64,000 nt of DNA, from NCBI GenBank assembly GCA_003971905.1, contig RSEE01000067.1, forward strand, positions 310,001-374,000, written 5' to 3'. A program made the position numbers and the translations under genes. Below the pieces are notes generated by a model, which did not search any database, was not told the DNA's origin, and saw nothing but the letters and a program-made list of their open reading frames with translations. This stretch comes from Moniliella sp. 'wahieum'. Taxonomy: Eukaryota. Shown piece by piece: positions 2,542 through 64,000 of this stretch (positions are counted from its first letter, which is position 1; each line of letters begins with the position of its first letter).

Positions 2542-2729
2542 TAGTTAACGTTTAACCTGACCCACGCGGGGTACGAAACATTACGGCATGCCGGGCTACG
2601 TCAGCGGCCCCCTGAGCATGGCGGCGATGGCCTGAATGCATCATCCATCCCGATCGATCACCGACCGCCTGATCTCACGCCGCTGTAGATTGATAGCCGC
2701 TGGCCATCGGCCATCTGTCTGCTGCCCCA

Positions 2730-8172: not shown

Positions 8173-9624
8173 TTAGCAGGATGAGGAGGAAGCAGGAAGC
8201 TGGACCTGATGCTCAGGCTGATGCTCAGGCTGAGGCTGCAAATGAGGCTGCAGATGAGGGTGAGGCTGCAGATGAGGATGAGGCTGCAGATGAGGATGAG
8301 GATGAGGCTGCAGATGAGGATGAGGATGAGGCTGCAGATGAGGATGAGGATGGGGATGGGGATGGGGATGGGAAGGCCAGGGCAACCAAGTGGGCGCGGT
8401 TACCGACGAGGGTGAACGAGAAGAATGAGGAGAATGGGTATCGGAAGTTGATCGTTCGCGACCGGTTTGACGGCGGAATCGCGAAGCCAAAGAAGAAGGT
8501 AAATACGAAGGTGAGTGCACTACGGACCGTCGTCGTCCGCGCGTGGTAGTGGTCGGGTGGTGGTGAACAATACCGTTTCCGCCCTGAGTAATAGGTGTGT
8601 ATGATCTGCGTGAGAACGTGCTTGGGCCTCACCGTGTACCGCATCCACCTCCGCTTCTGCATCCGCTTCCGCTTGGTCGGCTTCACGTTCATGTTGTTCT
8701 TGGTCCTTACCATCCTCGCCGTCCTCCTCCTCTTCCTCTTCCTGCGCCGCGGTGGGCCCAATGCGCGTGGGGTAAGGTAAGGGCATATCGCGTACGACGC
8801 GGTACGAGTCCGAGTTACCCAGATGTTCGTTTCCACACGCAAAAAGTTCCATTGCCAACGGCGTGCCATCTCGAGCAAGGCGACGAGAAAGCCGCGGAGC
8901 AACTGGGATGCCGAGCCGGGGTAAAAGTAAATGGACCAAGCAAAGCGGATGTAAATGTTGGTGACGATTGCCACGTAGTAGAGGTACCAGAGCGAAGTGT
9001 ACCATAACGTTGAGCGGAGGAGGGGGTAAGGTGTTAGCATGTGGACGAAGGAGAGACCAGTCCATTAAGATGTCCCAGGCGGCAGCGTAGAGTGAATAGG
9101 CAGAGGAGATGGTAGCGTACGTGCCTGTCACGCCGCCGGTACGAGGAGAACCATGCATACGCCAGTAAACGTATATGAAAGATTGGGTGGTAGCCAGGGC
9201 GTACTTGCCCGCGTTGACAAGGTGGATATGGTCGGTCCGACGGGAATCGAACCAACGGCGCCAACATTGAGTGAAACGTAAGAACGGGAAGAGTGCCATG
9301 AGCGCCGCTCGCCACCAAGTATGGTTAAAGTCGCACGATCCAACTGCCCAATGGTCATCCGCACTGCACCCGACCACCCATAGCGCCGAGAGGGAAAATT
9401 GCAAGCTGTTCAACTCGTCGCCCAAGAAAAAGTCTTTGAACTGCACACTCCATTGTGTACCTGGTAACAACCGCCCGTCAATAGACGTAGCAAGGTACGC
9501 ACGAACCACTCGCGTGAACGTAGATGAAACACCGGAAACGGATTCAGCACAAGTACCGCCACTACCACCAACCAGACCTGTCCGCTCAATGGTGTACCGT
9601 CAGTCAGTCAGTCAGTCAATCAGT

Positions 9625-9655
<31 letters not shown>

Positions 9656-11490
9656 ATACCTGCATCCTGTCTGGGCCCCTCCGATCGGGGTGGGGGGAGA
9701 GACAGAGACGGAGACGTCGGCAGCAATGGAGGAGGAGGGGGAGACGTACGACAGGCCATGTGGTGGGAGCAATAGCGTGCGGGAAAGGGTCGAGGAAGGA
9801 GAGCCAAAGAAGATGGCGAGGATCATGGTGAGCAAGCAAGGGAGAGGAAAGTACTGCATAGGGTGGAGGGTAGAACGTAAATCAAACTGAAAGATAAAGG
9901 GGGCATTAACGCGCCAGATATGCCAGACGAGCAAATTGACACCAAACAAGATGGCAAACACGCTGATGATGAGAAATGCACCGTACACACGGAGGAGCGG
10001 TTGCCAATCTGGGATACGCTCTTTGGTATCTGGTCGCATCATCTGTACCAATCCTGCGCACGTGGAGCACACAGCAACACCAAGAAACAAGCCAGCTTCA
10101 AATGCTGACCAGTGGTGCGCAGCAGGGAAAGGGTAGTACCACCGGTTGTACCTCGTAACCGAGCCAAGGCAGTTTACGATCTCCATGCTCATAAACGCCG
10201 CATACAAGTCCTCGGTTGCCTTGACGACGGGTAATGCTATCGTCGGTAACCAAGGCGGTGGGATTGACGCGTGCGGCCAAGTAAGGCTCACTTACTGGTA
10301 CCCCCACGTCTTGGGCCTTTTTGAGAATCTTGACCATGCCCACCCGACACAGAAACTGGAACGAGTGTAAAATGTGCAATTGCGGTACAGCTCTAGCACT
10401 GCCGCCTTGACCGCTCTCCGGGCCGACTTGTACCCTTCCGGATCAAACTCTACGCCGCCAAGGCGTCTTGGGCCGACGGAAGGGCCATTGGCTGCACGGG
10501 CAAGATGGAAGGGATAGCCATCATGGCCTGGGCTCGGCGCTCGTACCCGGATCTTGTTCCGGCTCGGGAGGAGCGCGGCAGTACGGTCGGTAAGCGGGTC
10601 AGTAGGCGTCAGAGGCAGGGTCGGTGTTGTCGTTGAGGTTGGTGGCATGGCCTTGCGCGGTACGATGCGGGTAACGGGGACACTGTGTAGCGGATGCAAG
10701 TTGGCATTGAGGTTGATTCCTGACGCATGGGCCGAGGAGGAAGATAACACATGGTGAGCGCGAGCAGCACGGTACCGCATACGGTGCTCAGCAAGTTCTT
10801 TGAGTTGCATGGCAATCTGCTCAAACCGCGCCTCGGCCTCGTTACGTCGTTCCTCGTAAAAGGACAAGATCCGTGCCATCTCCGTATCGAGCACGGCAAA
10901 TACTTTGCGCTCCTCGACATCAAACGAGGCAAGAACCAAATGCAGCAGGGCCTGGGTTGCTTCGTCCGGGCGCTTCTCAGCCTCGGTCTCGGTCTCGGCG
11001 TCGGCGTCGGCGTCAGCGTCAGGGTCGGCGTGGGAGGCTTGGCTGGGCGGGGGCGTGCGGGGGCTGGGGATGGCGCTGTAGGGGGGGATGATGGTTGCAT
11101 GCGGGTCGATGGAGAGTTGGGGCGGGAGGCGCACGGGCGGGAGGGGCGCAGCCTGGTCGCTGGCGGGGGGTGGGGGGGGGCGAGGGATGTGGGGCTTGGG
11201 CGGGGGGGGGGCTGGCGGGGGAGCGAGACCGAGGGGGGGGCGGGGACGAGCGGAGGGGGGCGGTGGTCGCGGTGAAGGAGGGGCAAAGGGGAAGGGCGAG
11301 GGTGCGGGCGCGGGGCTGGTGGCGGCTGGGGCCAGAGGCGGCTGCTGCTGCTGCTGGGCACGCACAAGCGCCATGCGGGCGCGGCGGTGGGCATCGACCG
11401 CCTGATGAGGCGCTTGAGCGGGCGGTAGCGGATGTAGGCGGTGCTCCATTCGGGCTGCTGCTGCTCCTCGAGGTAGCGCGCAAACTTCAT
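8173..11490 (-). CDS. SYG1: SPX + EXS domain membrane protein (Syg1/XPR1/PHO1 family)
   Basis: N-terminal MKFARYLEEQQQPEWSTAYIRYRPLKRLI and KILKK (SPX); VQFKDFFLGDELNSL, HLVNAGKY, WDILMDWSL, LEMARRWQWNFLRVE, NEHLGNSDSYRVVRDMPLPY (EXS); intron 9578-9749; 3' end uncertain. Confidence 0.92.
8205..8372. repeat. GAGGCTGCAGAT/GAGGAT repeat tract, probably a His-Pro-Gln-rich C-terminal tail of the SPX-EXS protein
   Basis: Visible tandem 6- and 12-bp units. Confidence 0.85.
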
Positions 11491-11954
11491 TGTGGGCTCC
11501 TGGGTGTGCGCGCCCCTCGGCCGCGCAAGCAACAGCAAGCAGCCACGAACGAACGAGAGAAGAGCAAGAAAGAAACACAGCAGCTGATTAGCCAGCCCAG
11601 CTGCTATCCCGTCTCCCTGCATGGCATGTTGCAACTTTCACTTGGCTTGTGCCTTCCCCTGGCATCGTTTCGCCCATTGATCCGCGCGTACTACTGACTC
11701 ATGACGGGACCTATTGCCGCATCCCGTCCTTTGTATGTTGCTGTGTCGACTCAAGCTCTTCCATGTACAGCAGCTTACGTTGTGAAAGCCATCGCGGATA
11801 TATACGCGCTTTGATGCGTAGTGGCCCACACCACTTGGCGCATCTCTCTGCGGAAATCAACCGTTGTCACGTGCGGGTTTAGGGTTAAACGTTAACCGCT
11901 CTTAAAGGGTACAATGCAATCCCTTGGAGGGTCTAAGGTCGACCCACGGTAATT

Positions 11955-15650: not shown

Positions 15651-16252
15651 GGCAAGTGGCGTGGCTGGATGCGGGGGCGGAGGTGGTGGCGGGGGGAGCT
15701 GTAATAGGTGGGGCACGACTTGAAGGCAGGTGCGTCTGAGGGAATATATGTGCGGCTGTGTGTGCGGCAGACGCAAGGCCGTGGACAGTGCTCTGGTGCG
15801 CGGGACTGTCGAGGCGCCCCACTGGCTGGCTCGACCGCCGCGGCGCATGCCCAGGCACGTGACTCCGGCATCAGTACTCAGTATCAATCCCGTCCCATTC
15901 CGCTGGCCGCACACCTGCCCCCGTGCCCCAAACGCATCCTCTCCCCGGCCGCCGCGCTGTACGTAAGCCAGCCGATCGCCCAGCCCCAGCGGTGACCAAT
16001 GACCGGTGACCGGTGACCATCTCTGAATGCGGCCCCGACCGCCCCCCTCGCCATCGCCATCGCCAGCGCCATCGCCAGCGCCATCACCAGCGCCATCGCC
16101 AGCGCCATCACCAGCGCCGTCGCCGTCGTCCGCGCCATCGACCCCCCTCTCCCCCCCTCCCCCTCCCTCTCTGCTTCGCCTGGCTGCGCCTGCGCCTGCG
16201 CTCTGCCGCCCGCACGCCCCCCTCCTCTCCGCCCCGGACTGGACTGGAGGCC

Positions 16253-19200
16253 ATGCCGTCCTTCGTCCCGCTCGCGCCGGCCTCCACCGCCGCCCGCATC
16301 GACTCGTCTTCTGTCGCTGCTGCCGCCGCCGCCGTCGCTGCCCACACCTCCCAGACCAACGCTGCCCTCGACCAGATCTTCACTGTCCTCGTCTCCCGCG
16401 AGCACAGCGAACGCGCCCATGCCGTCCAGCAGCTCCACACCCTCGTCCGCACCACCAACGCCGAGCTCGCTGACGATGCCCGCTCGACTTTTACCGCGGC
16501 TGGACCAGTCGCATCATCCCCATCTCTGGTAACGCCTCCCCGCTCTCCGCCCGCATGGGCGCCATGGAAGCCATTGCCGGCACCGCCGACCTCGTCGATG
16601 GCAACTACACCTTCCCCCGCTACTGGTCCGCCATCCGTTCAACATCACCACCGACAACATCCAGCTCATGCAGGCTGCCAACTATGCGCTCAGTTCGTAC
16701 CTGCCCCCCTCCTTGCCTCTGTACACCCTGGCAGCTACTAACCTTCCCTTACTAGTCTGTGCCGTGCGCACCGTCAACACCTTTGCCCAGTCGTCGGGTG
16801 TGTTTGTGGCGGTGGGCGAGTGGGCAATGGAGCGCCTGTTGGGCAACGAGTATGATCACTATGGCGCCGTGCTCTCCATCGGCACCCTCGCCACCTACCT
16901 GCCTGCCTACTTCCACAATTCTCCCCTCATCCCGACCTCGTCCGCCTGCTCAATGCGCTCAATGATCCCAAGCGGTGGGTCCGCGAGGCGGCCAGCGACA
17001 CGCTCGGACGCTGCCTTCACACCCTCGAGACCCGTGCTCCAGCTGGCGTGACCAAGGGCGTGTCGAACGCATGTACCATGCCGCCAAGGAACCTCTCCTC
17101 CCTCGCGGGGGGGTTAAGCCTGTGGAGACGGTGCATGGGACTCTGCTGTGCTTTGAGCAGTTGTTCGAATGCACACCGATCTCATGCTACCCTTTTACCA
17201 CGAGGTTACCGATCTCGTCATCAACCTTATCCGCCACCGCGACCAAATGATCCGCCGTACCGTCTTCAAGACACTCACGCCTACCTTGGCCCGGTACGAC
17301 CCTTCCTACTTTGCCGAACACCACCTCCACCTCGTCATCACTTCCCTCACCTCCATCCTCCGCAAGGACAAGGACATGCAGCGTGACCCGGCGGTGGCCG
17401 AAGAGGTGTTCCAGACTTTGGGTGACCTTGCCAAGGCCGAGGGCGGACACATCAAGGAATACACCGAGCCCATCATGGCGTGCATTCGGGACGCGCTCCA
17501 GCACCAAACCAAGCGCAACGCGCCCCCCGTCGAGGCTGTCTTTTGGGCGTTGGGCAAACCTGGCTCAATCCGTAGGCGCCCACATTACCCGCCATGTCCA
17601 TGACCTGCTCGATCTCCTCTTTGCCTCGGGACTGAGCACTGCCTCGGTCCGCGCTTGAGCCAGATTGTCGCGGCTGCTCCGCCGCTTCTCCGCGGCGCGC
17701 AGACTCGGTTGCTCAACATGGTCTCTCTTTTCTGTTGGGGGAACCGTACCGGGAACTGGGTGCGCCTTCCTATGCCCAGTATTCGTCAGTCACAGGCGTC
17801 TCTCTCTCCTCGGGTGCGGCGCGAGACGCAAAGATGGTCCGGGTAGCCTTGGTTTCCCTTCGTGAGTTTAACATGTCGGGTCACTGGTTGGGCGAGTTTG
17901 TGCGCGACTGCACCTTGTCTTATTTGGACGACGAGAATCCCACCACCCGTCGAGAAGCCACGTTGACGTGTCGGCGTGTATGCCAAAGACCCAATCATGA
18001 CCCAGTCTGCACTCGATCGAGTTGGTGAACGATGTGCTGGACAAGATCATGACTGTGGCTGTGGCCGACTTGGATGAGAATTTGCGGATCGAAACGTTGC
18101 AGCACCTCGTGCCGCGCTTTGACCAGTACTTGGGCAGCCGATTTTGTCCGTTCCTTTTCATTGCGTTCAACGACGAAAATTTCAGGTGCGCATTGAGGCC
18201 ATCAAGATCATTGGTCGAATCGCCAAGATCAACCCGGCGTATACGATGCCGACGCTGCGTAACACGCTCATCCAGCTCTTGACGGACATTGAATTGTCGA
18301 CGCAACCCAAGAGCCAGGAAAAGCATGCCGCTTACTCACCATGGTGATTCAGGCGGCTCCGTCGTTGGTCCGAGGCTACGCCGTGCCTATCCTCTCCGTC
18401 TTGCTCGTCAAGATCAAAGATCCTACGCCCGAAGTCGCCGCCAGCGCCCTCGCTGGCCTTGGCGAACTGTCCCGCGTGAGCGGGGAAGAACTAGGTTCGC
18501 ACGTCAGTGGCTCGTGTCGAATGTGGTGGAACAACTGAGCAACAGTAACTCGGAACCTGAGACGGCCAAGCGCAAGGCTGCACTCACCACCCTCGGTCTG
18601 GTAGTGTCCAACACTGGTTACGTCGTAAAACCGTTGATGGAGCATCCGGGCCTCCTGGGCACCCTGGGACGGATTCTTAAAGAGTCGGCTTCGGACAAGG
18701 CCACCCACCATGAAGTTAGCCGTGTGCTCGGTCTGCTGGGTGCGATCGATCCCAACAAGTTTAGAGTGCGTAACCCGTAACCCCCTCCCTCCTTTCTGTT
18801 GTGCGAAACGTATACTGACCCGACACGATAGGAGCAAGCTGAGCTTCCTGATGACGAGCCACCGAGGCACCCCAGCCCGGATCGGACGCCGAGATGTTTG
18901 ATGTGGGGGTGGAACATGGGTGGCACAACGAAGAGTATTTCCAAAACACCGTGATCACCCTCTTGATGCGCACGCTGCAAGATCCCAACCTGATGGCGCA
19001 CCATACCGCGGTCGTGGAGGCGCTCATGCTCATGCTCGGGGGCGGGGCGTTACAGTTATCGCGCCTGACGCAGGTGGTACCAACGTTTATTACCAAGATC
19101 GTCACTGTGCCTGCGTTCGGGGCTGTACTACGACCAGTTGGCCAAGCTCACGACCCAGGTCAAAGAGCACATCCGTCCTTTTGTCCCGGACTTGGTTGCT

Positions 19201-22200
19201 CGGATCGCCGAGGACTGGGACACGACCACCACCTCGCGCCACGCGATGGTATCGGTGATCGAGGCGTTGTGCAGTGTGCTAGACGGTGAATTCAAAATGT
19301 ACATGCCGCAACTTTTACCGCGGATGCTGAGTGTGTTGGATTCCGAGGCGAACGGGGCGCACCTCAAGGCTCCTTACCTCCGCATCCTTCATTCGCTCCA
19401 ACTGTTTGGTCGTGCGATTGAGGATTACCTCCGCCTCGTTGTGCCTGGTGGTGCGCATGTTTGAGCGGGACGACTTGCCGCGCCAAGTGCGTAAGGCGGC
19501 ATTGTTTCCATTGGCCAGATCTCACGCAAGGTCAATCTGTCCGATATGTCCAGTGGGATTGTGCAGACCTTGTCGCGGTGCTGGCCAAGACAGGGTCGGA
19601 CCAAGAGATGCGCAATGCGGCAATGGACACACTTTCCGCCTTGGTGGTTCAGCTGGGCACGGGGTACGCTGTGTTTGTCAACTCTGTGGACCGGGTGCTG
19701 AAGCAGCACAACATTCATCAGCCGCTGTACGAAAAGTTGGTGGCCAAGTTGCTCAAGGGGGAGAAGTTGGCACAAGACTTGATCCCGATACGTCAATTGC
19801 GCCTCCGCCAGCGCAGAATCCTCCGCCGAACGATGCGCCGTCGAATCCGGTCCACTTGCGGCGCTCGTGGCAGTTGGGTGACTTTACCACGGACGAGCAG
19901 TGGGGGCAGTGGATGAAAGATATGGCCAGCGCATTTGTATCGGAAGCGCCGTCACTTACGATTCGCGCGTGCCGACCTGTGGTCTACTCGTACCCTGCCT
20001 TTGCGCTCGAGTTGTTCCCAATAGCGTTTGTGGCGTGCCAAGCGGGTCTGCCAGAAGACTACAAGCGCGATTTGGAACTCAATTTCCGCAAGGCGTACGA
20101 GTCCAGTACAGTGCCGGACCATGTCATCCACTTTTTGCTCAACATTGCCGAAGTGATGGAACACTACTACGAGCCTTTGCCCCGTGACATTTCGCTCTTG
20201 GCGACCAAATCGTTTGATTATGCGCTGTATGCCAAATCACTGCATTACAAGGAAGCCGAGTTCTTTGACCAACCTTCGGCGACGGTGATCGAGTCGCTGA
20301 TGGACATCAATACGCGACTGCGGCAAGCCGACAGCGCCCTGGGGCGCTGAACCTGGCCCAGGAAAAGTGGGGGATGACCAACAAGGAAACGTGGTACGAG
20401 AAGTTGCATCGATGGGAAGATGCGCTGAACGCGTTCCGTAATCTGGGCGAGGAAGAAATGAGCAAGTATGGTGCGGTGCAGATCAGTACGCAATTGGGAA
20501 GATGCGCTGTCTGCATGCGCTCAGCCACTTCCAACAACTCGCGGAGGCAGTCGAGGAAGCATGGGACGCCGGCGCGACCGAGGAGGAAAGTAAACAATTG
20601 GCTGTGCTGGGTGCCGCTGCTGCTGCCTGTCCCTTCAGCGATGGGAGGCGCTCGACCAGTTTACCAGCTTATGGACCGCGACTCGGAAGATCGCTCGTTT
20701 TACCGTGCCATCCTGTGCACCCACTACTCGCAGCGCGAGCGCGCGCTCAAGCACATCAACCGTGCTCGCGACGTGATGGATGTGGATGTGATCTCGGCCT
20801 TGTCGGACGGGTACGGTCGGAGCTACAGTGCGGTGGTGCGGACGCAAATGCTTGCCGAGCTCGAGGAGGCATTGATTTACAAGCTGGACTTTGCGGGTCA
20901 ACCGGACCGGCAAGCGGCTATGCGGCGCACCTGGCTCAAGCGTCTCGAAGGGTGCCAGGCCGATGTGGAAGTGTGGCAGCGGATGTTGTCGATCCACAAC
21001 TTGGTCGTCACACCTACTGAGGACCAAGAGGCGCGGATCAAGTTTGCCAATCTGTGTCGGAGCCAAGGCCGGATGATTCTGGCGAGCAAGACGCTCTGTG
21101 ACTGATGGGCGTCGACATGAGCGCGTTTGGCAACATTGACGTGAGCTTTTACCTCAACCCGGCTGTACCGCCAGCGGTTTCCTATGCCCATCTCAAGTTC
21201 CGTTGGTCCGTCAGTTCCTCCGGACGGGACATGGCGCTGTCGGACCAACGGGAGATCCAAGAGACTGTCTTGGCTGACTTGCGCGAGTTTACCAACAACT
21301 CTCTGGAATATGGGGTGGTGCACGAGCTCGAAGCAGGACAACAAGGGTTCATTGTCCCCACCGTGTCGGGCACCGTGTCGCCCGAGTCCCTGAAACTACT
21401 CGCACGCTGTTTCTCCAAACAGGGTGAATGGCAAATGGCCATCCGGAGTCGAAACGAATGGGTAACCGACGAGAACTGCGATGTGCTCGAGTCGTTCCGG
21501 CGCGCTACGGTGCTGGATACCAAGTGGTACAAGGCGTGGCACTCGTGGGCCGAAGCCAACTTTAATGTGCTTCAGTACAATGAGGAGAAAGGTGGTGCCG
21601 AGGCACTGATGAAACAGTCCATCGTTCCTGCCGTCACAGGCTTTTTCAGCAGTGTCATTCTCTCCTCGAAAAAGTACGCGTTGCAGGACACGTTGCGCAT
21701 TCTCGCGCTCTGGTTCAAATGGGGTAACGACCCGCAAGTCGACCAGGCCATGACCGAGGGATTCGGATCAGTCATCATCGATACCTGGTTGGACGTCATT
21801 CCCCAAATCATTGCCCGCATTGGCAGCAACATCCGCGCCGTACGGGACCAGATCAAGATGTTGCTCAGTTCCATTGGTGCTGCGCATCCCCAAGCGCTCA
21901 TCTACTCGCTTTCGGTCGCGACCAAGAGCAACAATGCCACCCGTACCTCAGCGGCCGACGACATTGTCGACTCGATGCGCGACCACTACCCCGAGCTGGT
22001 GGAGCAGGCCATGGTCGTGTCCAAGGAACTCATTCGTCTTGCCGTTCTCTGGCACGAACTGTGGCACGAAGGCTTGGAAGAAGCTTCTCGTCTCTTCCAC
22101 AGCGAGCATAATGCCGAGGCCATGTTTAGTCGGTTGGAAACGTTGCATGTGATGATGGACCCGGAACCTGAGACGGTACGCGAAGTCACGTTTGTCCAAC

Positions 22201-23608
22201 AAAACGGTCGCGACCTTAGTGAGGCACGTGAATTTTCGCGCCGGTACCGTCAATATGGTGACATGAACGATCTCAATTCAGCATGGGAGTTTTACTACAA
22301 GGTGTTCCGTCGGATCTCCAAGTCACTTACGAATGCGGCGTCGTTGGACCTGCCTCGTGCGCTCCTCGTTTGCTGGAGATGAAGGACTTGAAGTTATCCT
22401 TGCCTGGGCGGTACAAGCCGGGCAAGCCGGTGGTCACAATTCGCAGCTTTGAACACACGGTGCACATTATTGTTTCCAAGCAGCGTCCGAGACGAGTGAA
22501 AATGAACGGGAGCAACGGCAAGTCGTATCCGTACCTTCTCAAGGCATGAGGACATGCGGCAAGACGAGCGGGTGATGCAACTGTTTGGTCTGATCAATAA
22601 GTTGTTAGCGCAAAACCCGGAAACGGCCAAGCGCGAATTACGCATGCGGCGGTTCCCTGTCATTCCCCTCGCCCAACACGGGTATGCAAGGTTGGGTGGA
22701 GAATACGGATACGATGCATGTGCTCATTAAGGATTATCGCGAGCCGCGCAGCATCTGCTCAACATTGAGCACCGTCTCATGCTCCAGATGGCGCCAGACT
22801 ATGAACATTTACCACTCTTGCAAAAGATGGAAGTGTTTATGTACTCGCAGTCCAAGACCAAGGGCAAGACCTGTACCGCGTCCTGTGGCTACGTTCGCGC
22901 AACTCCGAGTCATGGTTGGAGCGCCGGATCAACTACACTCGTTCGCTCGGCGTGTCAGCGGTGGCAGGGTACATTTTAGGTCTGGGCGACCGGCATCCGA
23001 GCAACTTACTTGTCGATCGTTATACGGGCGAAGTGGTGCACATTGATTTTGGAGATTGCTTTGAGGTGGCGATGCAGCGACCCAAGTACCCTGAAAAAGT
23101 CCCGTTCCGTCTCACGCGTATGCTGACCAACGCGATGGAAGTCGGAGGTATCCGCGGCACGTTCCGCATCACGTCCGAACTGGTCATGAAGGTGGTAAGG
23201 GAGAACCGGGCGGGAATGATCACGTTACTGGAAGCGTTTGTGCATGATCCGTTGATTGGGTGGCGGTTGATTGATGGGCCCAACTCAGCGCCGTCAACTG
23301 CCCTCCCCGGCGGACGGACGGCATTAGCACCGACGACGAAACGCGCAGTGCAAGGGCGGTGCAGTGGTCAACCGCATCCACAGTAAACTCGAAGGTACCG
23401 ACTTTAACACTGAGGAACCCCTCGACGAGAAGAACAAATGGCCCGACTGATTGAACAGGCGACCAGTGTGGCCAACTTGTGTGTCGCGTTTGTTGGGTAC
23501 GTATTGTTGTTCTGGGTGCGGGTTGGTGTGGGTGGGTGGGATGATATGGAGACTAACGTACTGTGGCGATGGGGGTTCTTGTGTGCTCAGTTGGTGTCGT
23601 TCTGGTGA
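16253..23608 (+). CDS. TOR1: Target of rapamycin (TOR) PIKK serine/threonine kinase
   Basis: HEAT repeats; FAT domain ([47 protein letters not shown]); FRB ([15 protein letters not shown]); kinase ([57 protein letters not shown]); FATC ending LCVAFVG/WCxFW*; introns 18766-18831 and 23497-23590. Confidence 0.98.
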
Positions 23609-24588: not shown

Positions 24589-27548
24589 TCATGCTAGGTA
24601 CTGGTACGTGGTACGGTTATCAGCAACCGTTCGAGGTACTCGCGATCAATCAAGGATTCGATGCGTTTCTTGATATCAGCCATGGCGGGACGGAATCGAG
24701 GGGAGATCATGCGAACCGTTTCAGCTACCAAATCAGTATGCGTAGCAACCTTACGATTCTTCATGATGCGCACAATCGCCGCGTCAGTCAAGTGCATCCG
24801 TTCCTCAAGCACTTTCCTATCCGTCTCCTTCTTCTCTGTTGGCGTCTCGACCCGCGCAACAATCTGAGCAATCTTGATCTTGGCCAAGGGACAGGTAACG
24901 ACGCATTGAACCGGAACCGATCCGTGTCGAGCACCTCGCGCCCTTTAGGCTCCTTGAGCAAAATCTTAAACTTGGCACATGCCAAACTCTGTAACGTACG
25001 ACGCAACTCCCCATCGGGAATCCCCGTTCGCTCTCGTAACGTAACATAGTCCAGTGGGCTCTACCACGGTACCCGCCAAGCCTGATGCGGCAGATTCCGT
25101 GGGCGCTGCCGTGCCCCCATTACCCCCATTCCCCCATTCCCCCGGTACCCTCGTTGCCCTCGTTGGCTTCGTTGGTCTTGGGCAGAGCGCGGCGGGCAGG
25201 CTCAAACTGAAGCAGCACCACCAGGGCATACGTCGACACGTTCAATTCGTGTGTGCGTGCGCGGAAACGGACCTTGACATCCGCTGTGCCGAGGTGAGGT
25301 TGCCATGCGAGACGACGACCACTGTGTTGGGCATGGTACCACGTCTCGTACCGTTCTTGTGCCTGGGCCAGCACGGGGGGCCAGTGCAGCGTGTGTTGTT
25401 TGTTGGTTCCGGAGATTTGCGATGGCCAATAGGTAGCGGTTAGTACCGTTACGTGCTCTTCCATGGGAGCCGCGACCCCAGCACCACCGGTATCGGTACT
25501 GCCACTGGGGGCAGGCAAGAGGGATTTGGTCTCGTGCATAAAGCGTTGGCTGGCTTCCTCGGAAAGTCGCATATCGTTCAACATGCCACTAAGTTTGTGG
25601 ACATAGTTGTGACCGCATTCGACTTTAAGTTTGGCCATCATATTTCTCTCTGCGTCGTCCGAGGCCGACTTGGCCGAGAGCAAGCGTCGGCCCAAGTGAG
25701 TCTTGTAGTACGTTTCGAACGCGTCTTTTTGATCGAGGTAGCGGAAGAGGAGGATAGTTTGGTCCAGTACTTCGTCCCTTGTTTCTCCGTCTTGCCCTTA
25801 ACGCCTTTCTTGAGGTTATCGTCAATGAACAAGCTGAGGAACTCGGGTGCGCGTGGGTTCCGATTGATCAGCGTCTCGAACGCCTCGTTGATCGCCGTTT
25901 CACATCCACATCCGATTGCAAACATGTAGTCAACCTGGTCAAATTGGGCTTTGAACTGCACCACCTCGTCGACCCAGTGCAGTGCGCTGGCCAGCGTCTG
26001 GGCCGCAGTCGATTTGGGCGCCTCACCCTCAGTGGCATCCTTATGCATCGGAGCAATGGCCGCATTGATCGTCTGCCCGCGGGCTAAGATGTACTTCTTC
26101 ATTCCTTGTTGAGGGCTGGGATGCCTGGCTCAACACGGCGGAAGAGGCGATAAAGAAGTGTCAGATCAGCCGTTCGGTTCTCGGCGAGCATCACAGCCAA
26201 ACCCGATCCGGGCCGCTCTAAAATTTGGTCCAGGTGGTCTTGCAAAAAGATCTTGTCTAGTAACCAACGAAGTTCCGGACCCGTACTGTCGTGCAAGTAC
26301 ACCGACACACGTTCCTCCTCCTCTTTCAGTCGGCGCGCCACGAGGCGAAGGTACGCACCGGCATCTGAACGCCCGCGGAAAAGGGCGCGCCTGGCGCACC
26401 GATCGCTCGAGCCGATTCAGCGCGATAAAAGTCGTCTGGCACGGAGGAGAGTCTTCAAATTGACGTTTGTACAGCGTCGGGCGGTGGTAAAAGGAGACGT
26501 TGGATTCAGGATAGGTGAGCGTGACCAGCATCTCGACACAACTTTGGATCGCCGAGCGGTTCACCACTGTGCCCTCCCGTTCCAGTTGGATTTGGGTCAA
26601 GAGGGTGCCGTAGAGGTTGCGTCGAATCGGGCACTGGTCGGAGCAGACCACATTTTGCCGGAACAGTTCCAAGCCCAAATCCCAGCTGGGAAGACGGTTG
26701 TGTTGTGGCACGTACACGCGGTCCTGTGCAACGCCAAAGCAACCCGCCCGTGTTAGTGAGAGGCAACCAGCATGGAGGGAAAGAAAAAGAAAAAGAAGAA
26801 AAGGAAGAAGAAAAAGAGAGAGAAGACGTACGACGTAGTTGAGCACTTTGGAGAGGGTGCTGGTACAAGCACAGTGGTCATCCCACACATCCCGAATCGC
26901 CTTGAGCAGTCGCTCTCCTGCTTGGGCAATCGTAATGGCATCCGCCCGGTCCACCTCGACGGAAGCTGAGACCTGCTCGGGGGGGCTGGGCTCCGCACGG
27001 CTGGCGTCGGGAGGAAGGTTTCTGCTTCTGCTCCTGCCTCTGCCTCGTCGTCCGAGACGGCACGAGCTTTGCCCTTGCCCTTGGGCTTTGGCTTGCTCGG
27101 GGTGGGCAGTTGGGAGGAGGGCTGTCTGTCCTTGGCGGGCGCAGGGTCGGAGAGACTATCGACAAGCGGAGAGAGGGTGCGTTCGGGCGGGAAGCAGGGC
27201 ACGATGGTATCGGTGCACTTGAGGGCGAGGTGTTCCTCGAGGAGGCGGGTGATGCCCTCGTAGAGAATGTCGCCGTGGTTGTGGAGAACAAAGATGTAGG
27301 CATAACGAAAGTTTTCCTCGTAGCTGAGACTGCTGCTGTTGTGGTTGTAGATCTCCCGCACCGCGCGCGACAGACGACGCCACATGTCGTGCGGCGACAT
27401 GTCGGGGCCGGTCTGGGAGGGGGGTGAGAGGGGGGTCAGCGGGGCGGGCACGCAGGGGCAGAGGAGGGACCGGGGGGACACGCACTCGCTTGGGCGCACG
27501 CAGGCGTGGGCGTGGCGCAGACCCGGCGCGGCGTGGGCCGGTGGACAT
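24589..27548 (-). CDS. CUL3: Cullin-3
   Basis: [24 protein letters not shown]...[74 protein letters not shown], neddylation site [28 protein letters not shown]. Confidence 0.96.
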
Positions 27549-28870
27549 GGCAGGCGGTGGTGGTGGTGGAGGTGGTGGTGGAGGTGGTGGTGGAGGTGGA
27601 GGTGGAGTGGTGGGGTATCAGCCGCATGCAGTCTCCACCCAGCGGCAGGCGGCGTGCTGATGTAAGCATGTGGGCTGGTGCTCGCTGGATGCCATCTGAA
27701 ATGTTGCAGGGCGCATGCACGGGCCCAGGCCCCGTGCATTTGAACATTGCAGCCCACCCGGCGCCATCCGACCAAACACGCGCTTCCTCATTTCCACTCG
27801 CTCACGTCGGTCGCCTGTCCACCTCCAGCGCACACACCGCTGCCGAGATGCTAGCTGCTGGACCCAAGCTGAGAGCGCCGAGAGAGGAGAGGTCCGGACG
27901 CAACGCTTTGTGTCATTACACCGGTGGAGCCGAGCAGCCAGAGGCACAGAAGGCGCCAATTAAACCCCGAGGCTGGCCAGTGGTTTGGCTGGCTGGGTGG
28001 ATAGAGGCAGAGAGGTACAACCTGGTTCTGAGCCCTGCGGATAGGGCAATGCGATGGTCGTTGGCGTTGGCAGAGGATGAGGTCGATGAGGGAGGGCCAC
28101 AAAGAGAGGCTGCGTCGAAGGAGATCTGGCGATGGATAGACACATCAATAAGGGGGCGACGGTGGGCGACACTTATCGATTATCGATGAAAAAATGGTTC
28201 AGTGCAGGATGAAAACAAGTCGGGCAACGTGACGTGAGGGTGTGCTGCAGTGAAGCTAGGGTTAGACGCACCGCTGGTGAGCCCACCGGCGGAAGATTTC
28301 AAACCACGGCGGTGGGCTCTGCGCTGCCCTTGAAAAGACTGGCGGCCTTGCGCCTCTCAGATCTCATAACGCAACTCAACTCTTTGCCTGGTTGCTGAGA
28401 TTCGGGAGCGCTGGGAACTGAGTGAGATGTGGCCTCTGGATCTGGCTCTGGCTCTGGCTCTGGACTCTGAACTGGGCGACTCCGAAATCAGCTGACCCAC
28501 TCTGTCGCAGGGCTGCTGCATGTTAGCCCAGCGTGGGCCAGCACAGCGCCTGTGTGCGCACACGCGCTGCTTGGCCTGTCTGAATATTGGATGCACACCG
28601 GCCACACCCGAGAGAGGCAGGCGCGTAGCAACCCTACCCGCCGATCGATCACTAGATGCCTGCACTAGCAGACCCTACTTTAACGCAACCCCCAAACCCA
28701 AAAAAAACCAAAACCACATGGGTGCTGTCGCCCCCTGCCGACATGTTGGTCTGCTGGCCAGCTGCTTGCTCCACCTCCCACGCGCACCCGTTGTGCCTGT
28801 TTGGATATATACGCCCCCGTCCATCCGTCCATCCGTGCATCTCTCCATCCTCCCCACCCTCACACCCATC

Positions 28871-56230: not shown

Positions 56231-57909
56231 AACGTGGGACGGATGGTGACGGGTTCGTGCTTGTCACACCTATCCTTCCATTGCCTCGATCACTCGCACC
56301 GCTTATCCATTGCCTTTCTCTTGTGTCGTTCTTTTCTTCGCCCCATGATGCCACGTTTGTCGTAACCCAATCCTTGCCCGCCGTCCGCTCGCGATCTTTC
56401 TTCTGCTACCCTTTTTGCCCGGGTCAGTCCGGCATATGCCCTGGCAAGCTATCACAATCACCCTACTCGGCTCCATATGCTTTGCAGCCTATTCCCACTA
56501 TGCCATGTATTGCACCTGCAATGTTTGCTTTCTCACGTCGTTTCCTGTTATCCTTTCCACCTGTGTATAGTTATTGCTCCACGTGCTGCCTTTACATGTG
56601 ACCCTAAAACCCAAGTCAAGTAGTCCCGTGCCTCGCATTTTCTTTGTCTACAACCCTTCTTCAAACACCCCTCAGGACAGCTGAGCCCACTGGAAATGGT
56701 GGTCGACCGAAGACTAATCGTGAAGGCGGTTTCAAGCCCAAGTCATAGTCTCTACGATTATAATCAGGAACACACCGCGTCAGAAAAAGTTGTTTTGGCC
56801 TATGGTCACATGCACGTGTCATACCGTGAAGTATGGCCAGGGTAGTCACTAGTCACTATAGAGTCGCTAGTCGCTAGTCACGTCTATCGTCTCCGACAGA
56901 GGCTGAAGCTTGAAGTGACGTCACGCAGTGCGATGCGCCTGCGATACAAGGGCTGAATTGCAACACTGCTGCAGCCTGCCGTAAGGTAACTCCGTCCCTC
57001 TAAAGGCAGACCAGAATTAGGTCCTCAGGTAAGGTCTCACCGGCACAGGTCACCACGCGTAGAAACCGGGGTCCAGGAACCCCCCGGGGATAGCGTTTTG
57101 CTGCTTCTTACTATGCCATTCTGTGCCCCGTTGCCGCGTTACCCCGGTAGTTACCACAAAACAACAATCGTTAATCACACGGCTACTGTTGTCCGCGGCC
57201 TGGGACCTATAGTCCTGCCCTGAGGGTTCACGTTCACCTGAACGGCAGAAGGTGATACATCCCTCCGAAATACGCGGCCTTTGTGTGGATCAGATGTGTT
57301 GAGGATACGTAAACGTGAGAGGGGCTAAGTTGGGGGGTGAAGCCTTTGGAGCGTGAGGAAATGCAAAAGGCTGATCGACACGGCATGAAAATATGCACGT
57401 GTGTGGCCATGGCCGCAGCTGCGGGGGGACATCGCCACGGCATACACCACACGGGCTGGTGTTCTCGGAGCTCAGGCTGAGCCCTGAGCGAGCGTTGTGT
57501 GCTGAGCGGCTCAGTGGCTGCGCTGAGGCTCCGGACATATCAGTCGCTGTAGCGGGGCGTTGCGCACTGCCGCGGGAGCGCTAGGTGGGTTACATGTTAC
57601 ATGTTACACACGAGCTTGTCTCTCTCAAGCTGCGCATACCGTCCCCGTCCTCCGAAGAATGGCGAAATCTGTGCGGCACGTGATCCAGCCACGCCAGCAG
57701 AAGACGAGGGCGTGACGTGTGCCATGCTTAAAAGTGCGGCGTTCTCCCGCAATTCGATGACAAGTGCGACGAGCCGAGCCAGTTGCCGCGCACGGGCCAC
57801 GGCCTGCCGCGTATAAAACTCTCAAGCGGATTATGCGAAAACGTGTTCTGCTTCCCCCCACGTTGCCGTCTTTTTCTTCTCCACCCACTTTGTTTAGCAA
57901 TCTCTCAGC

Positions 57910-58995
57910 ATGCCTTCTGTCCCCAAGGGCGACCTGATTCTGATCACCAGCGGCTCTGGTTTCATTGGAGCCTGGATCATCGAGCACGCGCTGCGCGCCG
58001 GATACAAGGTCCGCACCACCGTCCGCTCGGCGGAAAAGGGCAAGTACTTGCAAGACACGTTTGAGCGCAAGCACGGTGCCGGCTCGGTGGAGTATGTGGT
58101 GGTACCGGACATGCAAGTCAAGGGTGCCTTTGATCAGGTGGTGCAGGGTGTGTCCGCGGTGATCCATACCGGCTCGCCTGTGCACTTTGACACAAGCAAG
58201 GACCCATACGAGACGCTGATCAACCCTGCGATCAATGGGGTAACGTCGGTGTTGAACTCGGTGCTTAGCCACGGCACCCAGGTGCGGCGTGTAGTGGTGA
58301 CGTCGTCAAATGCGGCCGTGTCCAATGTCAACGCGGATCCGGACACGGTGTTCAACGTGGACACGGACTGGAACACGGTTGATCCCGACTTGGTGCAGTC
58401 AGACCGGTCAAGTACGCTGGGGCGCCGGCGTATCGTGCATCCAAGACTCTGGCCGAGCGTGCAGCATGGGAGCTGTGGGAAAAGGCACGGCCACAGTGGG
58501 ACTTGACGGCGGTCAACCCAACGTTTGTCTTTGGGCCGTGGCTGCACCAGACGACGCCGAGCACGCTCAACGCGACAGTCCAGTGGCAGTACCAGCTGTT
58601 CCAGGGAAAGATCAGCCAGACGACTACCTGACGCTCAAGGGGGGGTATGTGGACGTGCGGGATGTGGCGGCGATCCATGTGGGCGCGCTGTCGACGGAGG
58701 GGGCGGTGGGGCGGCTGCCGGCGTCGACGGGGACGTGGGTGTGGCAGGACTATGTGGATGCGCTGCATGCGTCGGCAGTGGTGCCGGCGGCTGTCAAGGC
58801 GCGTGTGCCGGCGGGGCAGACGGGCGCGGGGCGTGGCGTGGTGCAGCGGCGGCTGGACGGAGCAAGTCGGAGCGCTTGCTGGGCATCAAGCCGCTGTCGG
58901 TGCAGGCGCAGGTGGATGCGGAGGCGGTGGCGCTGGCAGACTACGAGAAGCGTGGCTGGACGGGGCTGCCGTCGCTCGAGGTGTTGGCGCTGTGA
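57910..58995 (+). CDS. NAD(P)-dependent epimerase/dehydratase-fold aldehyde reductase (Gre2/aldehyde reductase II-like extended SDR)
   Basis: LILITSGSGFIG, GYKVRTTVRS, VIHTGSP, LINPAINGV, RRVVVTSS.AAV, YxxSKTLAE, YVDVRDVAAIHV. Confidence 0.93.
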
Positions 58996-59363: not shown

Positions 59364-62300
59364 ATGTCCGCCATGCCCGCCCCTGGTCACACCGCCTCTG
59401 CCTCCCGCCCCCTCCGCCCCCCCCACGCCCCCCACGCTCGATGTGCTCAGCTCAGACATGCCTCCCGCCACCCAGGCCACTGTCCTTGCCATCCTCTCCC
59501 GCGCCCTCGCCACCGCCACCGCCCCCACCCCTGCCCCTGCCCCGCACACCCCCTCCTCCGCAGCCATTGTCCAGCAGCTCGACGACGCCCTCCACCCCCA
59601 CTGGAGCTGCGTTATCGGCACTTCGTACTCGGTGCTCGTTGCCCAAGGTATGTGCTTCTCTCGCCCCACCCCCTCAATGCTAATGCTCGTCTCCCACACC
59701 CTGACCCCATCTGTCCCCCCCCCCCCCCCCCCCCGTCCCCAGATGCCCATACCTTCCTCAAGGCAAAGCAGGGTGATGTTTTCTACACCCTCTGGTGCAA
59801 CCGCATCATCCTCGACCTGCAGTGCCCCACTCCACTCACGTCGCAAATCAACGTAGACGGTGGGACATGTCCCCTGAGCAGGTTGCCCAGGTATCCCAAG
59901 TGGTTACAACGTTGCTTGCCGCTCACCCTACCTCCTATGCCGTGGCCGCCGACGCGATCGCCGCGCGGCTTCAAGAGACCTTCTCTTTCCCCCAAGACCA
60001 AGACGTCCAAGTGGGGGCTTCGTCGTTTCCCTCGGCCAGGACTATGCCCCGGTCCCCAACGAGGCCAGCCCGTCTACGATTCTCCTCTTGTCCCTGGGCA
60101 TACTGCGTGCTACGATTTACCACGTCAGCCATCGTTGCCAGCGATTGACATCAGCAAGCATGCTCTGGAACGACCCCCGACCGGCGCCTGTGTGCATGCC
60201 GCTGGCTTGCTCGACGTTGCGGCGCAGAAAGTTGTATTGATCATTTCGCATGCCATCTCACGTTGTTGCAAACGTGGACCTCACCTCCTCGCCCGACCTC
60301 CTTCTGCTCCAATCCAAATTGTCGCGTACCTTGGCCGCGGTCCTAGACAGGGGAGAATGTTTGTCCATGTTGCCAAGTCGGGCACCCCTATCACGACCCC
60401 TCCGATGCCAATGCTTTCGTCATATTTTCCCTTGATGGGTTCGAGTGGAGCGTCCACCCTTCCCACTTCGTCTGCCCATCACAGCCAGTGGCCGCATCAC
60501 CTCTCCTCTCTCATATGCACCTGGTCTGGCGCCGCCGCTAGCGCTTGGGCCCGTGCCTCCTGACATGATGCTCGCCTTGCCAGATATGTCGGTTGGCATC
60601 GACTCGCTTCCTCCTGGCTCTGGGAGCAGTCCACGGACGGAAATCTTGCCTGCAGACCCCGATGTAACCCAGTTGAGCGGGTCAACCGAGTACGCCGTTG
60701 AAGAAGGCCGACCAGTCGCCATGATAAGGGAGGCGCACATGCCCCTCTTTCTGCAAGGTGCAGCCACCCGTGCGGCCGAGATGACTCTTGTCTCGGATCA
60801 GGGGGACCCGGTTCCTTTCGAACAACAACGTGTGGCTCAAAATGTCTTATCGGCTGTACTCCCCCGTCTAAGGAACTGTACGCGCCCCGAGGCCAATGGC
60901 ACATTCGCTTTGCCGCCTTGGTCCCAGCCAATGCAATCTACTCTCTTCTCTTACTCTGCAAGGCCACCCGATCGCGGTCTTTCTTCTTCCTCCTGGGGTC
61001 GCCCCCGATCAAGGAGAATCTGACGACGTAGTGGAGGGTTTCCGTCTTTCTACTCCCGCGCCTTCCACTCCGGCTCCAGTAGTGCTGGATGCAGCGGGAG
61101 GATGGACGCGCGCCCCACGCTTCGCTTGCAGAACCCTCCTACCCCCTTACAAAGTCACGAGAAGACCGAATCTGTCTCCCCACTTGGCTCAGGACTAGGA
61201 GAGGTCTCTTCAGGTGCACCAGACCAGGAGTTGAAGGCGCCCGCGTCCATGTTGCTAGCGGCCCAGCAGTGTACGCAATGCAATGCAAGCCCATGAACCT
61301 GATGGCAAGTGCTCATGGCGCTGCAACAAACGTTGGTGCAACAAACCAATGCGCTCCACTTGACGGGCCAATGGAACTTTGGTCTACGACGGCGAGAGAC
61401 CCAGGGGGGCGATTTATCCCACATGGATTCCTTGCCACCGTTGACACCGTCTTCACCTCCTGATAAGGGCAGGTACACGATCCAGCTTCAGGCTTCGCCT
61501 CACCTCGCCATCACTGCCTGGTTCATCCCGCGTCCCCCTCCGCCCCCGTCTGCTTCCAACGCCGGACCGTCGCTGTCAGCAACTGCTCCGAGAATGGCGA
61601 TGCAGTCAATGGAAAAGAAGATAGAGAAGGAGACGGTGCTCAAGACACAAGTTGTCTCTGCTGCGACAACTCCATCCCTGGTCCAGTCCGCGTTCGGAAG
61701 AGCAAGAACCCTCTTCCTGGTACTCAGCTCTTCCTCGTCGTTCCACGTCTCCTGCTGCTCCACCCCCGAGCGCCTCCTCGACTGGTATCGTCAAGGGAGT
61801 CAAAGGAAGCAACTTGGCCGTGGCCGAACTCCACCTATCTCCTCCCCTACCCACTCTCCCAGCCACAAATCGCTTAGCCTCAAATCCCCACCCAGTTTAT
61901 CGCGCTCCCGCCTGAGCCCTGGGAGCCCAGGACTCCACCCCAAGTCCATGAAATCGTTTCTGTCTCTTAGCCGACACCGCCCGAGCTTGGCCCAGCCCGT
62001 CGTCTCCCACGGTCTGAGCGGCGACGCAGCAGGTCAGTTTGATGCTGCTCATGATGGGTCGACAGCGGAGGGACTGTACTCGTTCTGAACGCTGTGTCGC
62101 CTGCCATCCCGCATCTTCCCCCTTCGTCACGGGAAGGATCGACGGTACGGTCGGAGACAAAGAGCGATGCAGGGCACGAAGCGCAGGCGCCAATGCCATC
62201 GATCGGGCTGGACTTGGGCCTTCCCTCGCCATATTCGATGGACGTTTCTCCGGATCCAGTGGCGCGCCCGCAACATCCTCCATCGGCCTTTTCGAACCCG

Positions 62301-64000
62301 CGTCCCCGACAGAGCAGACGCAGGAGCAGGAGCAGAAACAAGAGGAGGCCCCGGTGTCGTACCCTCCTCCGCGCCGAAGGCATCAGAAACACAGGCAGCT
62401 ACCCAGGCCGTACGTGGAACGGATGGATTGGGCCTTGCGCCAGTGATGGCTGGGGAAGTGGAAATCCAAAGTGTGGCGATGAAACCATTGGGACCGTCCC
62501 ACGCGACCGAACCTCTCCTGCCTTCTGAGGTAGCGGTAGCAGAGGGGCCAGCTCCGCTCACGCCCGTGCGGATGCCTTCCACCCCTATGGTTTCGCAGGA
62601 TGAACTCAAGCCAGGTACCGATGTGCTAGTGGTGGAGAAGTCGGAGGAACTGATCACGCGCGCCGTTCCAAGCCAAGTCGCCGAACGCACTCAACCGTTG
62701 GATTGCTTGCCGCGCGAGGTGGGGGCACCAAAAGAGCCAGAGGAGCTAGAGGAATCCAAGATTCCAAAGGCGGACAAGGGGCCATTGGAGCTACCTCAAT
62801 CGCCTGAATTCACTCTGCCGTCTGAGCCTGCGGTGCCGGAGGTGCTGGCTTTGCCCTCGCAATCACTGGGGTCTGATGTACCAGCAGTGCCAGACGACGC
62901 GAAAGCGGAGGCACCAGAGCCAGAGGGAGGTGCCAACGGAACTAACCGAGCCTACCATGCCTGCATCTCGATCACCCGAACCTGCACAGCCATTGGAAAC
63001 AACAGACAAATCGGAGCCATTGGAAGCAACAGACAAGTCGGAGCCATTGGAAACAACAGACAAATCGGAGCGATTGGAAGCAACAGACAAATCGGAGCCA
63101 TTTGAAGCAACAGACAAATCGGAGCCATTTGAAGCAACAGACAAATCGGTGCCATTGGAAACAATAGGGTCGTTGGAATCATCCGTTTTAGGGAAAGTGG
63201 CGACGTCGTTGTCTTTGCCAGGGGCCGAGCAAATGATCCCCCGAACCATCCCCGCCTCCGCCACATCGTTCCCCTCCGTTTCCTACTACGGCGGTGAGGA
63301 CAACCTTGTGGCCTCCGTCTCGGTGTCGCAGGAGACAAACTCGTGACACCCAGACGTGGTGACCCACGAGGTGACAAGTTCGACCACCCACCATTGCGGT
63401 CGTGGCGGCTTCCCAGCAGGGTCTGGCGTGTACACAGACGCCGCCAGAGTTGGACCCAAGTCCACCGTCTCTGACCGAAAGAGGAAACAGTTCCTCTTTA
63501 GAAGGTACGTCTTTAATCATTTGTTATTTCTCGTTCTGGATCTTTGATGGTCGATGGGCCCAACGTTGCTGCAGACCAAATTCTAACCTCTGTACTTTGC
63601 TTTTAGAGAGAGGCAAGATGGTCGCTAAAAAGCATATTGTGCGCTGCTTCCCGCCGTCACGCTCGATTCCCTGCTGAGACACTCCACCTCCCAGGATGTG
63701 CAGGGACCCAAGCAGCCAGCGAATTCGACTTCCTCTGCAGATCACGAGACACCACAGCGCCCCTGGAGACGAGAGAAGATCCAGAACAGGGGGCGAGAAA
63801 TCGGACAAGCAGTGCAACTCCCCGCAACATCGCGGCCGGAGCAATCGTCTCCCCCGCGACAGCCTTCGGAGCCAGAGGAATGGGAGCTTCTTGAGGGATC
63901 GAGCGAGCAAGAACGAGCTGAACAACCTGTCTCTCCCGAACCTTCTGCTCAATCGCAGCCGTCGGAACCTTCTGAGCCAAATCAGCGGGAAATGCCCGAT
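59364..64000 (+). CDS. Large protein with tandem dynein light chain LC8-like domains and a long disordered tail; runs off the window end
   Basis: First domain after splicing intron 59648-59742: VLSSDMPPATQATVLAILSRAL...AAIVQQLDDALHPHWSCVIGTSYSVLVAQDAHTFLKAKQGDVFYTLW; further degenerate units follow; second intron about 63505-63606. Confidence 0.7.
62987..63172 (+). repeat. 27-bp coding tandem repeat, 6 full copies plus 1 partial, encoding EP(L/F)E(A/T)TDKS
   Basis: Head-to-tail gagccattggaagcaacagacaaatcg units with no spacers. Confidence 0.95.

Follow-up and report, generated by a model that had tools for sequence, protein, structure and literature searches.

A highly divergent LC8-type domain heading a long predicted chain in the basidiomycete Moniliella sp. 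'wahieum'

Canonical LC8 is a stand-alone and very conserved eukaryotic hub protein, which almost always occurs as a free dimer of 89 residues. The present analysis concerns a locus of Moniliella sp. 'wahieum' in which a domain of this type appears to form part of a much longer chain. The stretch analysed, referred to as the window, comprises 64,000 nucleotides (GenBank assembly GCA_003971905.1, contig RSEE01000067.1, positions 310,001 to 374,000 of the forward strand) and is numbered from its first letter. An earlier note made from these letters had proposed that the locus encodes up to five tandem LC8-like units in a single protein, here called units 1 to 5. The reading that we regard as on balance probable is more restrained: a real, lineage-restricted gene with one intron, extending from approximately 59364 to 62088 on the + strand and encoding a chain of about 880 residues, in which a single diverged LC8-type domain at the N-terminus is followed by an orphan remainder.

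Several described systems can be set beside this locus. With canonical LC8 (DYNLL1-2 and yeast Dyn2; Pfam family PF01221), unit 1 has in common the two helices, the first of which opens with D-M, the W-x-C-[VI]-[IV]-G strand and a hydrophobic hairpin at the C-terminus. It differs in carrying additional residues, inserted ahead of the final strands or appended behind them, and in heading a predicted chain of about 880 residues instead of being a free protein of 89. The best solved relatives of a profile made from unit 1 and its relative P0002 (see below) are the axonemal LC8-like LC10 chains of Tetrahymena (7k58_I and 6zyw_I; E 7e-4 and 7.7e-4, respectively, positions 4-69), which are LC8 paralogues that also exceed 89 residues (106-110 residues). 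These LC10 chains are, however, stand-alone ciliate dynein subunits, and no observation ties the fungal protein to dynein.

A closer parallel in terms of fusion is offered by the tegumental allergen-like/CaBP proteins of flatworms, in which, according to PMC5372573, a diverged PF01221 domain is joined to EF-hands in one chain. Examples are CsTegu20.6, FhCaBP2 (PDB 5fwz) and CsTAL3 (PDB 5x2d), and the abstract of PMC12347358 describes the fusion of EF-hands with a dynein light chain (DLC) domain as restricted to trematodes. These proteins of about 20 kDa carry one DLC domain at the C-terminus, whereas the LC8-like domain of the fungal chain is N-terminal and is followed by no Pfam domain. A literature phrase search for tandem LC8 domains in one chain found no published description, and the flatworm EF-hand/DLC proteins were the only fused LC8/DLC forms found by searches on PF01221 architecture and on LC8-like/DLC proteins.

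The N-terminal domain of the predicted protein

Ten stop-free open reading frames (ORFs) across the locus were scanned against Pfam, with matches considered at E up to 10. Only one of them matched Dynein_light (PF01221), namely the unspliced ORF that contains exon 1 of unit 1 (E 2.7e-5, 24.9 bits, profile positions 4-64 of 86). The score lies below the Pfam gathering cut-off for this family (29.1 bits), a shortfall that is to be expected with the last strands of the domain sitting in exon 2. When the two exons were assembled by coordinates, the spliced unit 1 obtained 18.7 bits against a purpose-built LC8 hidden Markov model (HMM), over profile positions 13-88, and a combined LC8 profile, to which unit 1 and P0002 had been added, matched exon 2 at profile positions 71-90. 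The HMM, narrower than the Pfam family, was built from metagenome loci that contain a degenerate form of the canonical motif (121 loci giving 51 full-length ORFs, 37 of them distinct). Against 32 cleaned LC8 ORFs, the spliced unit 1 reached a z score of 9.2 in global alignment and, with hhalign, a probability of 80.8 over 77 aligned columns (E 1.3e-5).

When 1.84 billion representative sequences were searched by HMMER with exon 1, three matched at E up to 0.001, of which P0002 is the sole relative. This protein of 179 residues is a single ORF on a Logan contig of 4,199 bp, shows 57% identity and matches Dynein_light by itself (E 6.1e-5). Aligned to the HMM consensus, unit 1 displays the D-M start of helix 1 and, after helix 2, the W-x-C-[IV]-[IV]-G strand, both of which are kept in P0002, and it differs from P0002 by an 11-residue Pro/Ala-rich insert between the helices. 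The remaining two matches were rejected as spurious, P0001 being an fn3 protein and P0003 a tandem-repeat protein without a Dynein_light match; the latter (526 residues) is made up of approximately nine almost identical units, each about 55 residues long, and had matched exon 1 in five stretches at E 6.7e-5.

With the profile of unit 1 and P0002, LC8-type dynein light chains made up 28 of the 29 PDB matches at E up to 10, the best at E 7e-4. Exon 1 alone retrieved 20 matches, five of them LC8 chains and all of these near E 1, which together with the score of 24.9 bits illustrates how far more diverged unit 1 is than known LC8 proteins. In the ESM Atlas, the top three clusters for exon 1 all belonged to PF01221 (0.88, 0.88 and 0.87, with 203, 203 and 195 of 256 features, respectively; recognition 2546). 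The codon usage of exon 1 also favours the frame in which the domain is read (12.1 for f1 against -17.0 and -19.1; the frames f0, f1 and f2 are named by codon-start position modulo 3). Judged by its sequence, unit 1 is thus a genuine but strongly diverged LC8/DYNLL-type domain, and in this respect the earlier note, which had recognised the family from the pattern of residues and proposed a HMMER comparison with Pfam as a check, was borne out.

By analogy with the family, the N-terminal domain would be expected to adopt the LC8 alpha/beta fold, a five-stranded sheet with two helices packed on it, and to pair, through the edge of its beta-sheet, with a second copy of itself or with the canonical LC8 of the cell. 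LC8 homodimers have their client-peptide groove at the interface between the subunits. Such pairing would tether two long tails to each other in a dimeric scaffold, and dimerisation through unit 1 is the most likely function that the family suggests. Around the putative peptide-groove strand, which we take to be the strand that forms the groove in LC8 structures, the HMM alignment shows that unit 1 departs from the canonical consensus at several positions, and it is therefore doubtful that it would bind classical LC8 client motifs.

Frame breaks and the extent of the chain

The locus can only be read as one chain by changing frame repeatedly, and the same is true of conserved genes in its surroundings. 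When 146 and 131 stop-free ORFs of at least 110 residues were scanned against Pfam, the domains of the photolyase, TOR, nitronate monooxygenase (NMO), WD40 protein, epimerase, cullin and SPX-EXS genes in the window were each found split over several frames. A codon-usage model was trained on 2,851 Pfam-aligned codons from these broken genes and selected the correct frame in 147 of 155 held-out windows of 30 codons. Along TOR, the path of the model contains 23 frame changes in 7.4 kb, 16 in the direction of a one-base deletion and 7 in the opposite one. The LC8-like locus, with 9-11 changes in 2.7 kb, has an equal density, and several of its breaks fall at runs of five G or five C (60013, 60174, 60861 and 61142); on the unbiased path through the locus, five of nine changes carry the deletion sign. 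Across the assembly, approximately three small indels occur per kb of coding sequence, mostly with the sign of a one-base deletion. The frame breaks of the locus are best read as one-base assembly errors, mostly deletions in homopolymer runs, and not as features of the gene, which agrees with the correction of homopolymer indels on which the earlier note had relied. The strings quoted in that note were all found on the + strand near the positions given for them, spread over the three frames in three-frame print-outs.

The leader and exon 1 of unit 1 lie in different frames, and would be joined through an indel in the C5, C8 and C6 runs at 59408-59433. Codon usage favours f0 in the leader (2.4 against -5.2 and -1.6), and P0002 has an in-frame Met 12 codons upstream of the shared D-M motif. 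The predicted intron opens with a GTATGT donor and closes with a CAG acceptor, and between them lie a branch-like CTAAT near 59677 and a C20 run at 59715-59734. Once the intron is taken out, f1 continues into f0 and the LC8 alignment extends to profile position 88. The ORF of P0002 passes without interruption through the corresponding point, where its similarity to unit 1 is lost. The C20 run lies just 5' of the acceptor, and its true length is uncertain given the homopolymer errors of this assembly.

Beyond unit 1, the coding signal continues. The frame of exon 2 is free of stop codons for about 250 codons, and an unbiased three-frame Viterbi path (penalty 7) recovered the switch from f0 to f1 at 59432, the intron at 59651 and the further switches at 59858, 60029, 60131 and 60869. 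The path through the locus scored -67.6, whereas 300 dinucleotide shuffles gave -115.9 +/- 13.2 and reached -78.1 at best, and the reverse strand scored -143.3. Of 14 segments, 12 scored best by codon usage in the claimed frame, irrespective of whether stop codons were penalised or ignored; the other two are 60950-61190 and the f2 piece of unit 5, which is seven codons long. Since the segment borders were chosen with the open frames known, this count gives no clean probability. In the linker region (60541-60864), f1 scores 0.1 against -32.3 and -16.1. In unit 2 the model chooses f2 and then f1, and in unit 3 it backs f0 in the first part, with f2 and f0 near-even in the last (-4.0 against -5.9), while the f1 to f0 switch of unit 4 is the one placed at 60869. 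The tail forms part of an open frame of 261 codons starting at 61303, in which the preference is weak (-21.6 for f1 against -22.4 and -29.2).

One coding chain from 59364 to 62088 is therefore likely on the strength of its codon usage. Since the coding signal continues without a stop, unit 1 does not appear to be a stand-alone protein of 89 residues, as the earlier note had also held. In the chain so reconstructed, the first 110-130 residues would form the LC8/DYNLL-type domain, and the remaining 750 or so would be fast-evolving sequence without detectable relatives, in which at most one further stretch, unit 2, may carry a faint LC8-like signature. The parts of the locus and its neighbours are listed in Table 1. 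The window is rich in GC (59%), and neither the linker nor the tail matched a Pfam family in the scan at E up to 10.

Table 1. Coordinates of the parts of the LC8-like locus and of conserved genes in the window
Feature	Positions	Strand	Description
Predicted start and leader	59364..59432	+	ATG at 59364; short Pro/Ala-rich leader, f0
Unit 1, exon 1	59440..59647	+	f1; helices 1 and 2 and W-S-C-V-I-G strand; divergent LC8/Dynein_light
Predicted intron	59648..59742	+	95 nt, phase 1, spliceosomal
Unit 1, exon 2	59743..59822	+	f0; C-terminal strands of the LC8-like domain
Unit 2 candidate	59852..60129	+	N half f2 (59852-60010), C half f1 (60013-60129); break at G5 run 60013-60017
Unit 3 candidate	60201..60460	+	f0 (60201-60395), then f2 (60398-60460)
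Linker	60465..60714	+	f1; rich in Pro, Ser and Gly
Unit 4 candidate	60715..60997	+	f1 (60715-60864), f0 from 60867; break at C5 run 60861-60865
Unit 5 candidate	61225..61527	+	f1, short f2 piece 61289-61309, f1 from 61312
C-terminal tail	61528..62088	+	f1; Ser/Pro-rich; TGA stop 62086-62088
Photolyase	978-2552	+	Pfam domain over several frames
SPX-EXS	8228-11637	-	five or more pieces
TOR kinase	16023-23447	+	Pfam domains over several frames
Cullin	24597-27787	-	five or more pieces
NAD-dependent epimerase (neighbour)	57898-58995	+	frame path f1, f0, f2, f1

Some further features concern the 3' part of the locus. A CAATG-CAATG-CAA micro-repeat at 61274-61286 lies exactly at the frame break of unit 5, together with two in-frame TGA codons, and one CAATG unit gained or lost would account for the sole break to which a simple one-base deletion does not apply. 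Past the TGA at 62086, no frame is preferred over 62089-62400, and a strong frame-specific coding signal then appears on the + strand at 62400-62990, in codons with position modulo 3 equal to 1 (2.4 against -27.2 and -38.4; -7.9 against -38.5 and -32.2). The encoded sequence is acidic and rich in Pro, and it shares the frame of the tail. A GTCAGT donor-like site is present at 62033 and in-phase CAG acceptors at 62315-62335; to judge from these signals, splicing might carry the LC8-like gene past 62086, or the ATG at 62446 might be the start of another gene. A 27-nt tandem repeat at 62988-63164 (6.6 copies, 92% matches) lies in the open frame 62089-63105, where it translates into a repeated peptide of 9 residues.

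Units 2 to 5

Units 2 to 5 were read through by coordinates, with an X placed at every frame break. None of their ORFs gave a match in the Pfam scan at E up to 10. Against the canonical LC8 HMM, units 2, 3, 4 and 5 scored 1.3, -4.0, -1.4 and -2.5 bits, respectively, and against the combined profile 6.1, -1.1, -1.0 and -1.9 bits; the global-alignment z scores relative to shuffles were 1.2, 1.0, 2.6 and -0.3. The 6.1 bits of unit 2 correspond to a single-sequence E of 8e-4 and to a match in the correct register, which covers helix 1 and part of helix 2 only. In a scan of 1812 six-frame fragments of the window, unit 2 came fifth among the fragments listed (E 1.6), below two pieces of unit 1 and two unrelated fragments. 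Its hhalign probability was 2.8-6.1 (E 0.016-0.006), a result reached by none of 60 shuffles, and it begins 14 codons past unit 1 with a shared D-M-S/P-x-E/T-Q start.

The 'KW' that had been quoted before GFVV in unit 2 requires two frame changes within six bases, and the simplest repair, one G added to the G5 run at 60013-60017, gives V-G-G-F-V-V and no tryptophan. That unit 2 represents a second, degenerate LC8-like module is a tentative proposition, with odds slightly less than even.

For units 3-5, the hhalign scores against LC8 fell inside the range of the shuffles. The z score of unit 4 was reached by 0.7% of shuffles, and this unit has Y-x-P-x-x-x-W-H where the LC8 consensus reads Y-x-P-x-W-H. 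Its last strand, as quoted in the earlier note, lies in f2 (60950-60997), a frame that codon usage disfavours over 60950-61190 (-12.3 against -3.5 for f0). Comparison of the units with each other was equally unrewarding. With the spliced unit 1 as phmmer query against the 1812 fragments, no fragment of units 2-5 rose above noise, the best unrelated match having E 0.1 and the locus fragments E 29 and worse. Smith-Waterman alignment of the ten unit pairs gave one value of p < 0.05 (units 1 and 3, 0.0175), not significant after correction, and p > 0.18 for the others. Direct DNA repeats at the spacing of the units were absent except for a single 15-nt match, such as chance would produce, Tandem Repeats Finder reported nothing within 59830-62100, and a MAFFT alignment of the N halves of units 2-5 placed the D-M starts out of register and was dropped as a profile.

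Database searches with these parts were likewise negative. With six single-frame pieces of units 2-5 as phmmer queries against the PDB, no LC8 occurred among the 2, 0, 3, 0, 0 and 0 matches obtained (E up to 10), and the single-frame part of unit 5 retrieved no family from the ESM Atlas (best 0.79, 51 of 256 features, recognition 1336). In word-indexed searches, no homologue was found among longer proteins for the tail or for the linker with the N half of unit 4 (1298 candidates scored in the latter case), nor among proteins of 33-121 residues for the profile of unit 1 and P0002 (8 candidates scored).

Structure prediction was run on single-frame fragments, each unit being interrupted by a frame change. 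For the largest such piece (61312-61536, unit 5 minus its first helix), AlphaFold 2 (AF2) returned a model of low confidence (pLDDT 64.2) with strands at residues 21-29, 54-62 and 65-73. Foldseek placed the DLC-like domains of flatworm proteins at the top for this model (Fasciola FhCaBP2 at ranks 1 and 2, CsTAL3 at rank 16) and Tctex-1 at ranks 24 and 50, none of these being significant (E 1.1 or worse, probabilities of 0.3 or less, and root-mean-square deviations (rmsd) of 8-10 A for the light-chain rows), and VIA-align found no LC8 among its top 50. As a control, exon 1 of unit 1 was modelled by AF2 without an alignment; the result (pLDDT 66.8) had two helices, drew the real strand region as a helix and gave no Foldseek match at E up to 10. 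A complex predicted from the halves of unit 2 as separate chains scored 0.02 against a mark of 0.34, with the partner fold uncertain. Because the same procedure failed on the genuine unit 1, the fragment route says nothing either way, and the DLC-like rows for unit 5 constitute a lead from a model, not evidence.

By sequence, units 3-5 thus appear to have no LC8 likeness beyond the modest global score of unit 4, the sole hint in comparisons that otherwise stand at chance. The proposal of a five-LC8 concatemer is accordingly not supported, although it is not refuted either: units 3-5 resemble neither LC8 nor one another significantly, and unit 2 is marginal. The accompanying idea of intramolecular pseudo-dimers has no basis as yet, since it depended on that concatemer.

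Competing explanations and implications

A number of observations weigh against a single N-terminal LC8-type domain followed by an orphan chain. The pieces downstream of unit 1 had no homologues in the searches made, and P0002 ends before that region. A version of the codon model that includes a non-coding state labels 59652-63896 as non-coding, and the codon signal 3' of unit 1 is far weaker than in conserved genes, where TOR-sized windows reach +80 to +130; the agreement of frames over the segments also profits from the way their borders were drawn. Other observations would leave room for more LC8 modules than one: the global z score of unit 4, the order of helix, helix, Trp strand and hairpin that is visible in each unit, and the strands of the unit 5 model, which fall where LC8 strands would, with DLC-like domains as its best two Foldseek rows (E 1.1-1.5).

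The latter points lead to the alternative in which the chain holds three to five, perhaps six, modules of the LC8 fold that have diverged beyond sequence recognition, as a lineage-specific multi-LC8 family whose adjacent modules could pair within or between chains and form a multivalent scaffold. Besides the genuine unit 1, the start and registered match of unit 2, the Y-x-P-x-x-x-W-H of unit 4 and the DLC-like and Tctex-1 rows of unit 5 speak for such an arrangement, as does the finding that the quoted strings mostly lie in codon-preferred frames. We nevertheless consider it unlikely. Units 3-5 have negative bits on both LC8 profiles and hhalign scores no better than shuffles, the units resemble neither unit 1 nor one another in protein or DNA comparisons, and the PDB and Atlas searches that recognised unit 1 (five of 20 matches LC8; recognition 2546) yielded no LC8 for the pieces of units 2-5 and a recognition of 1336 for unit 5. 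Two of the quoted details, the unit 2 tryptophan and the final strand of unit 4, moreover rest on unfavoured frames, and the unit 5 rows suffer from the E values, rmsd and missing VIA-align support described above.

Two further explanations are both judged improbable. The gene could be short, coding for unit 1 alone in about 130 residues, with its stop codon lost to an assembly error and the rest being 3' untranslated region, a separate gene or non-coding DNA. This would fit the size of canonical LC8, the non-coding label, the lack of homologues downstream in the searches made and the presence of f1 stops at 59854 and 59875, soon after unit 1. Reaching these stops, however, requires a shift in the rarer direction (7 of 23 changes in TOR), while the frame of exon 2 stays open, frame-specific signal persists past unit 1 (f0 to 59858, f2 to 60029 and f1 to 60131), and the codon path scores above all 300 shuffles and the reverse strand. 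Equally, the breaks could be real mutations in a decaying locus that once encoded an LC8-like, possibly repeated, protein, in line with about ten frame changes in 2.7 kb, codon log-odds against background that are near zero or negative 3' of unit 1, and the detection of only one relative. Against such a pseudogene stands the fact that essential conserved genes of the window are just as broken (TOR, cullin and SPX-EXS), together with the location of breaks at homopolymer runs, the deletion sign of five of the nine changes and the codon signal that survives in 12 of the 14 segments. The single diverged domain with an orphan remainder is thus kept as the preferred reading.

The locus demonstrates how easily a motif can be read from three frames of GC-rich DNA in an assembly laden with errors, and the secure result is modest, namely one new and very divergent LC8-like domain. 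A diverged LC8-type domain heading a long orphan chain in a basidiomycete is nonetheless an unusual setting for this family. If unit 1 dimerises, it could tether a large and rapidly evolving protein, and it might compete with canonical LC8. Should the other units prove to be LC8 folds, the locus would represent a natural experiment in the conversion of an intermolecular into an intramolecular dimer.

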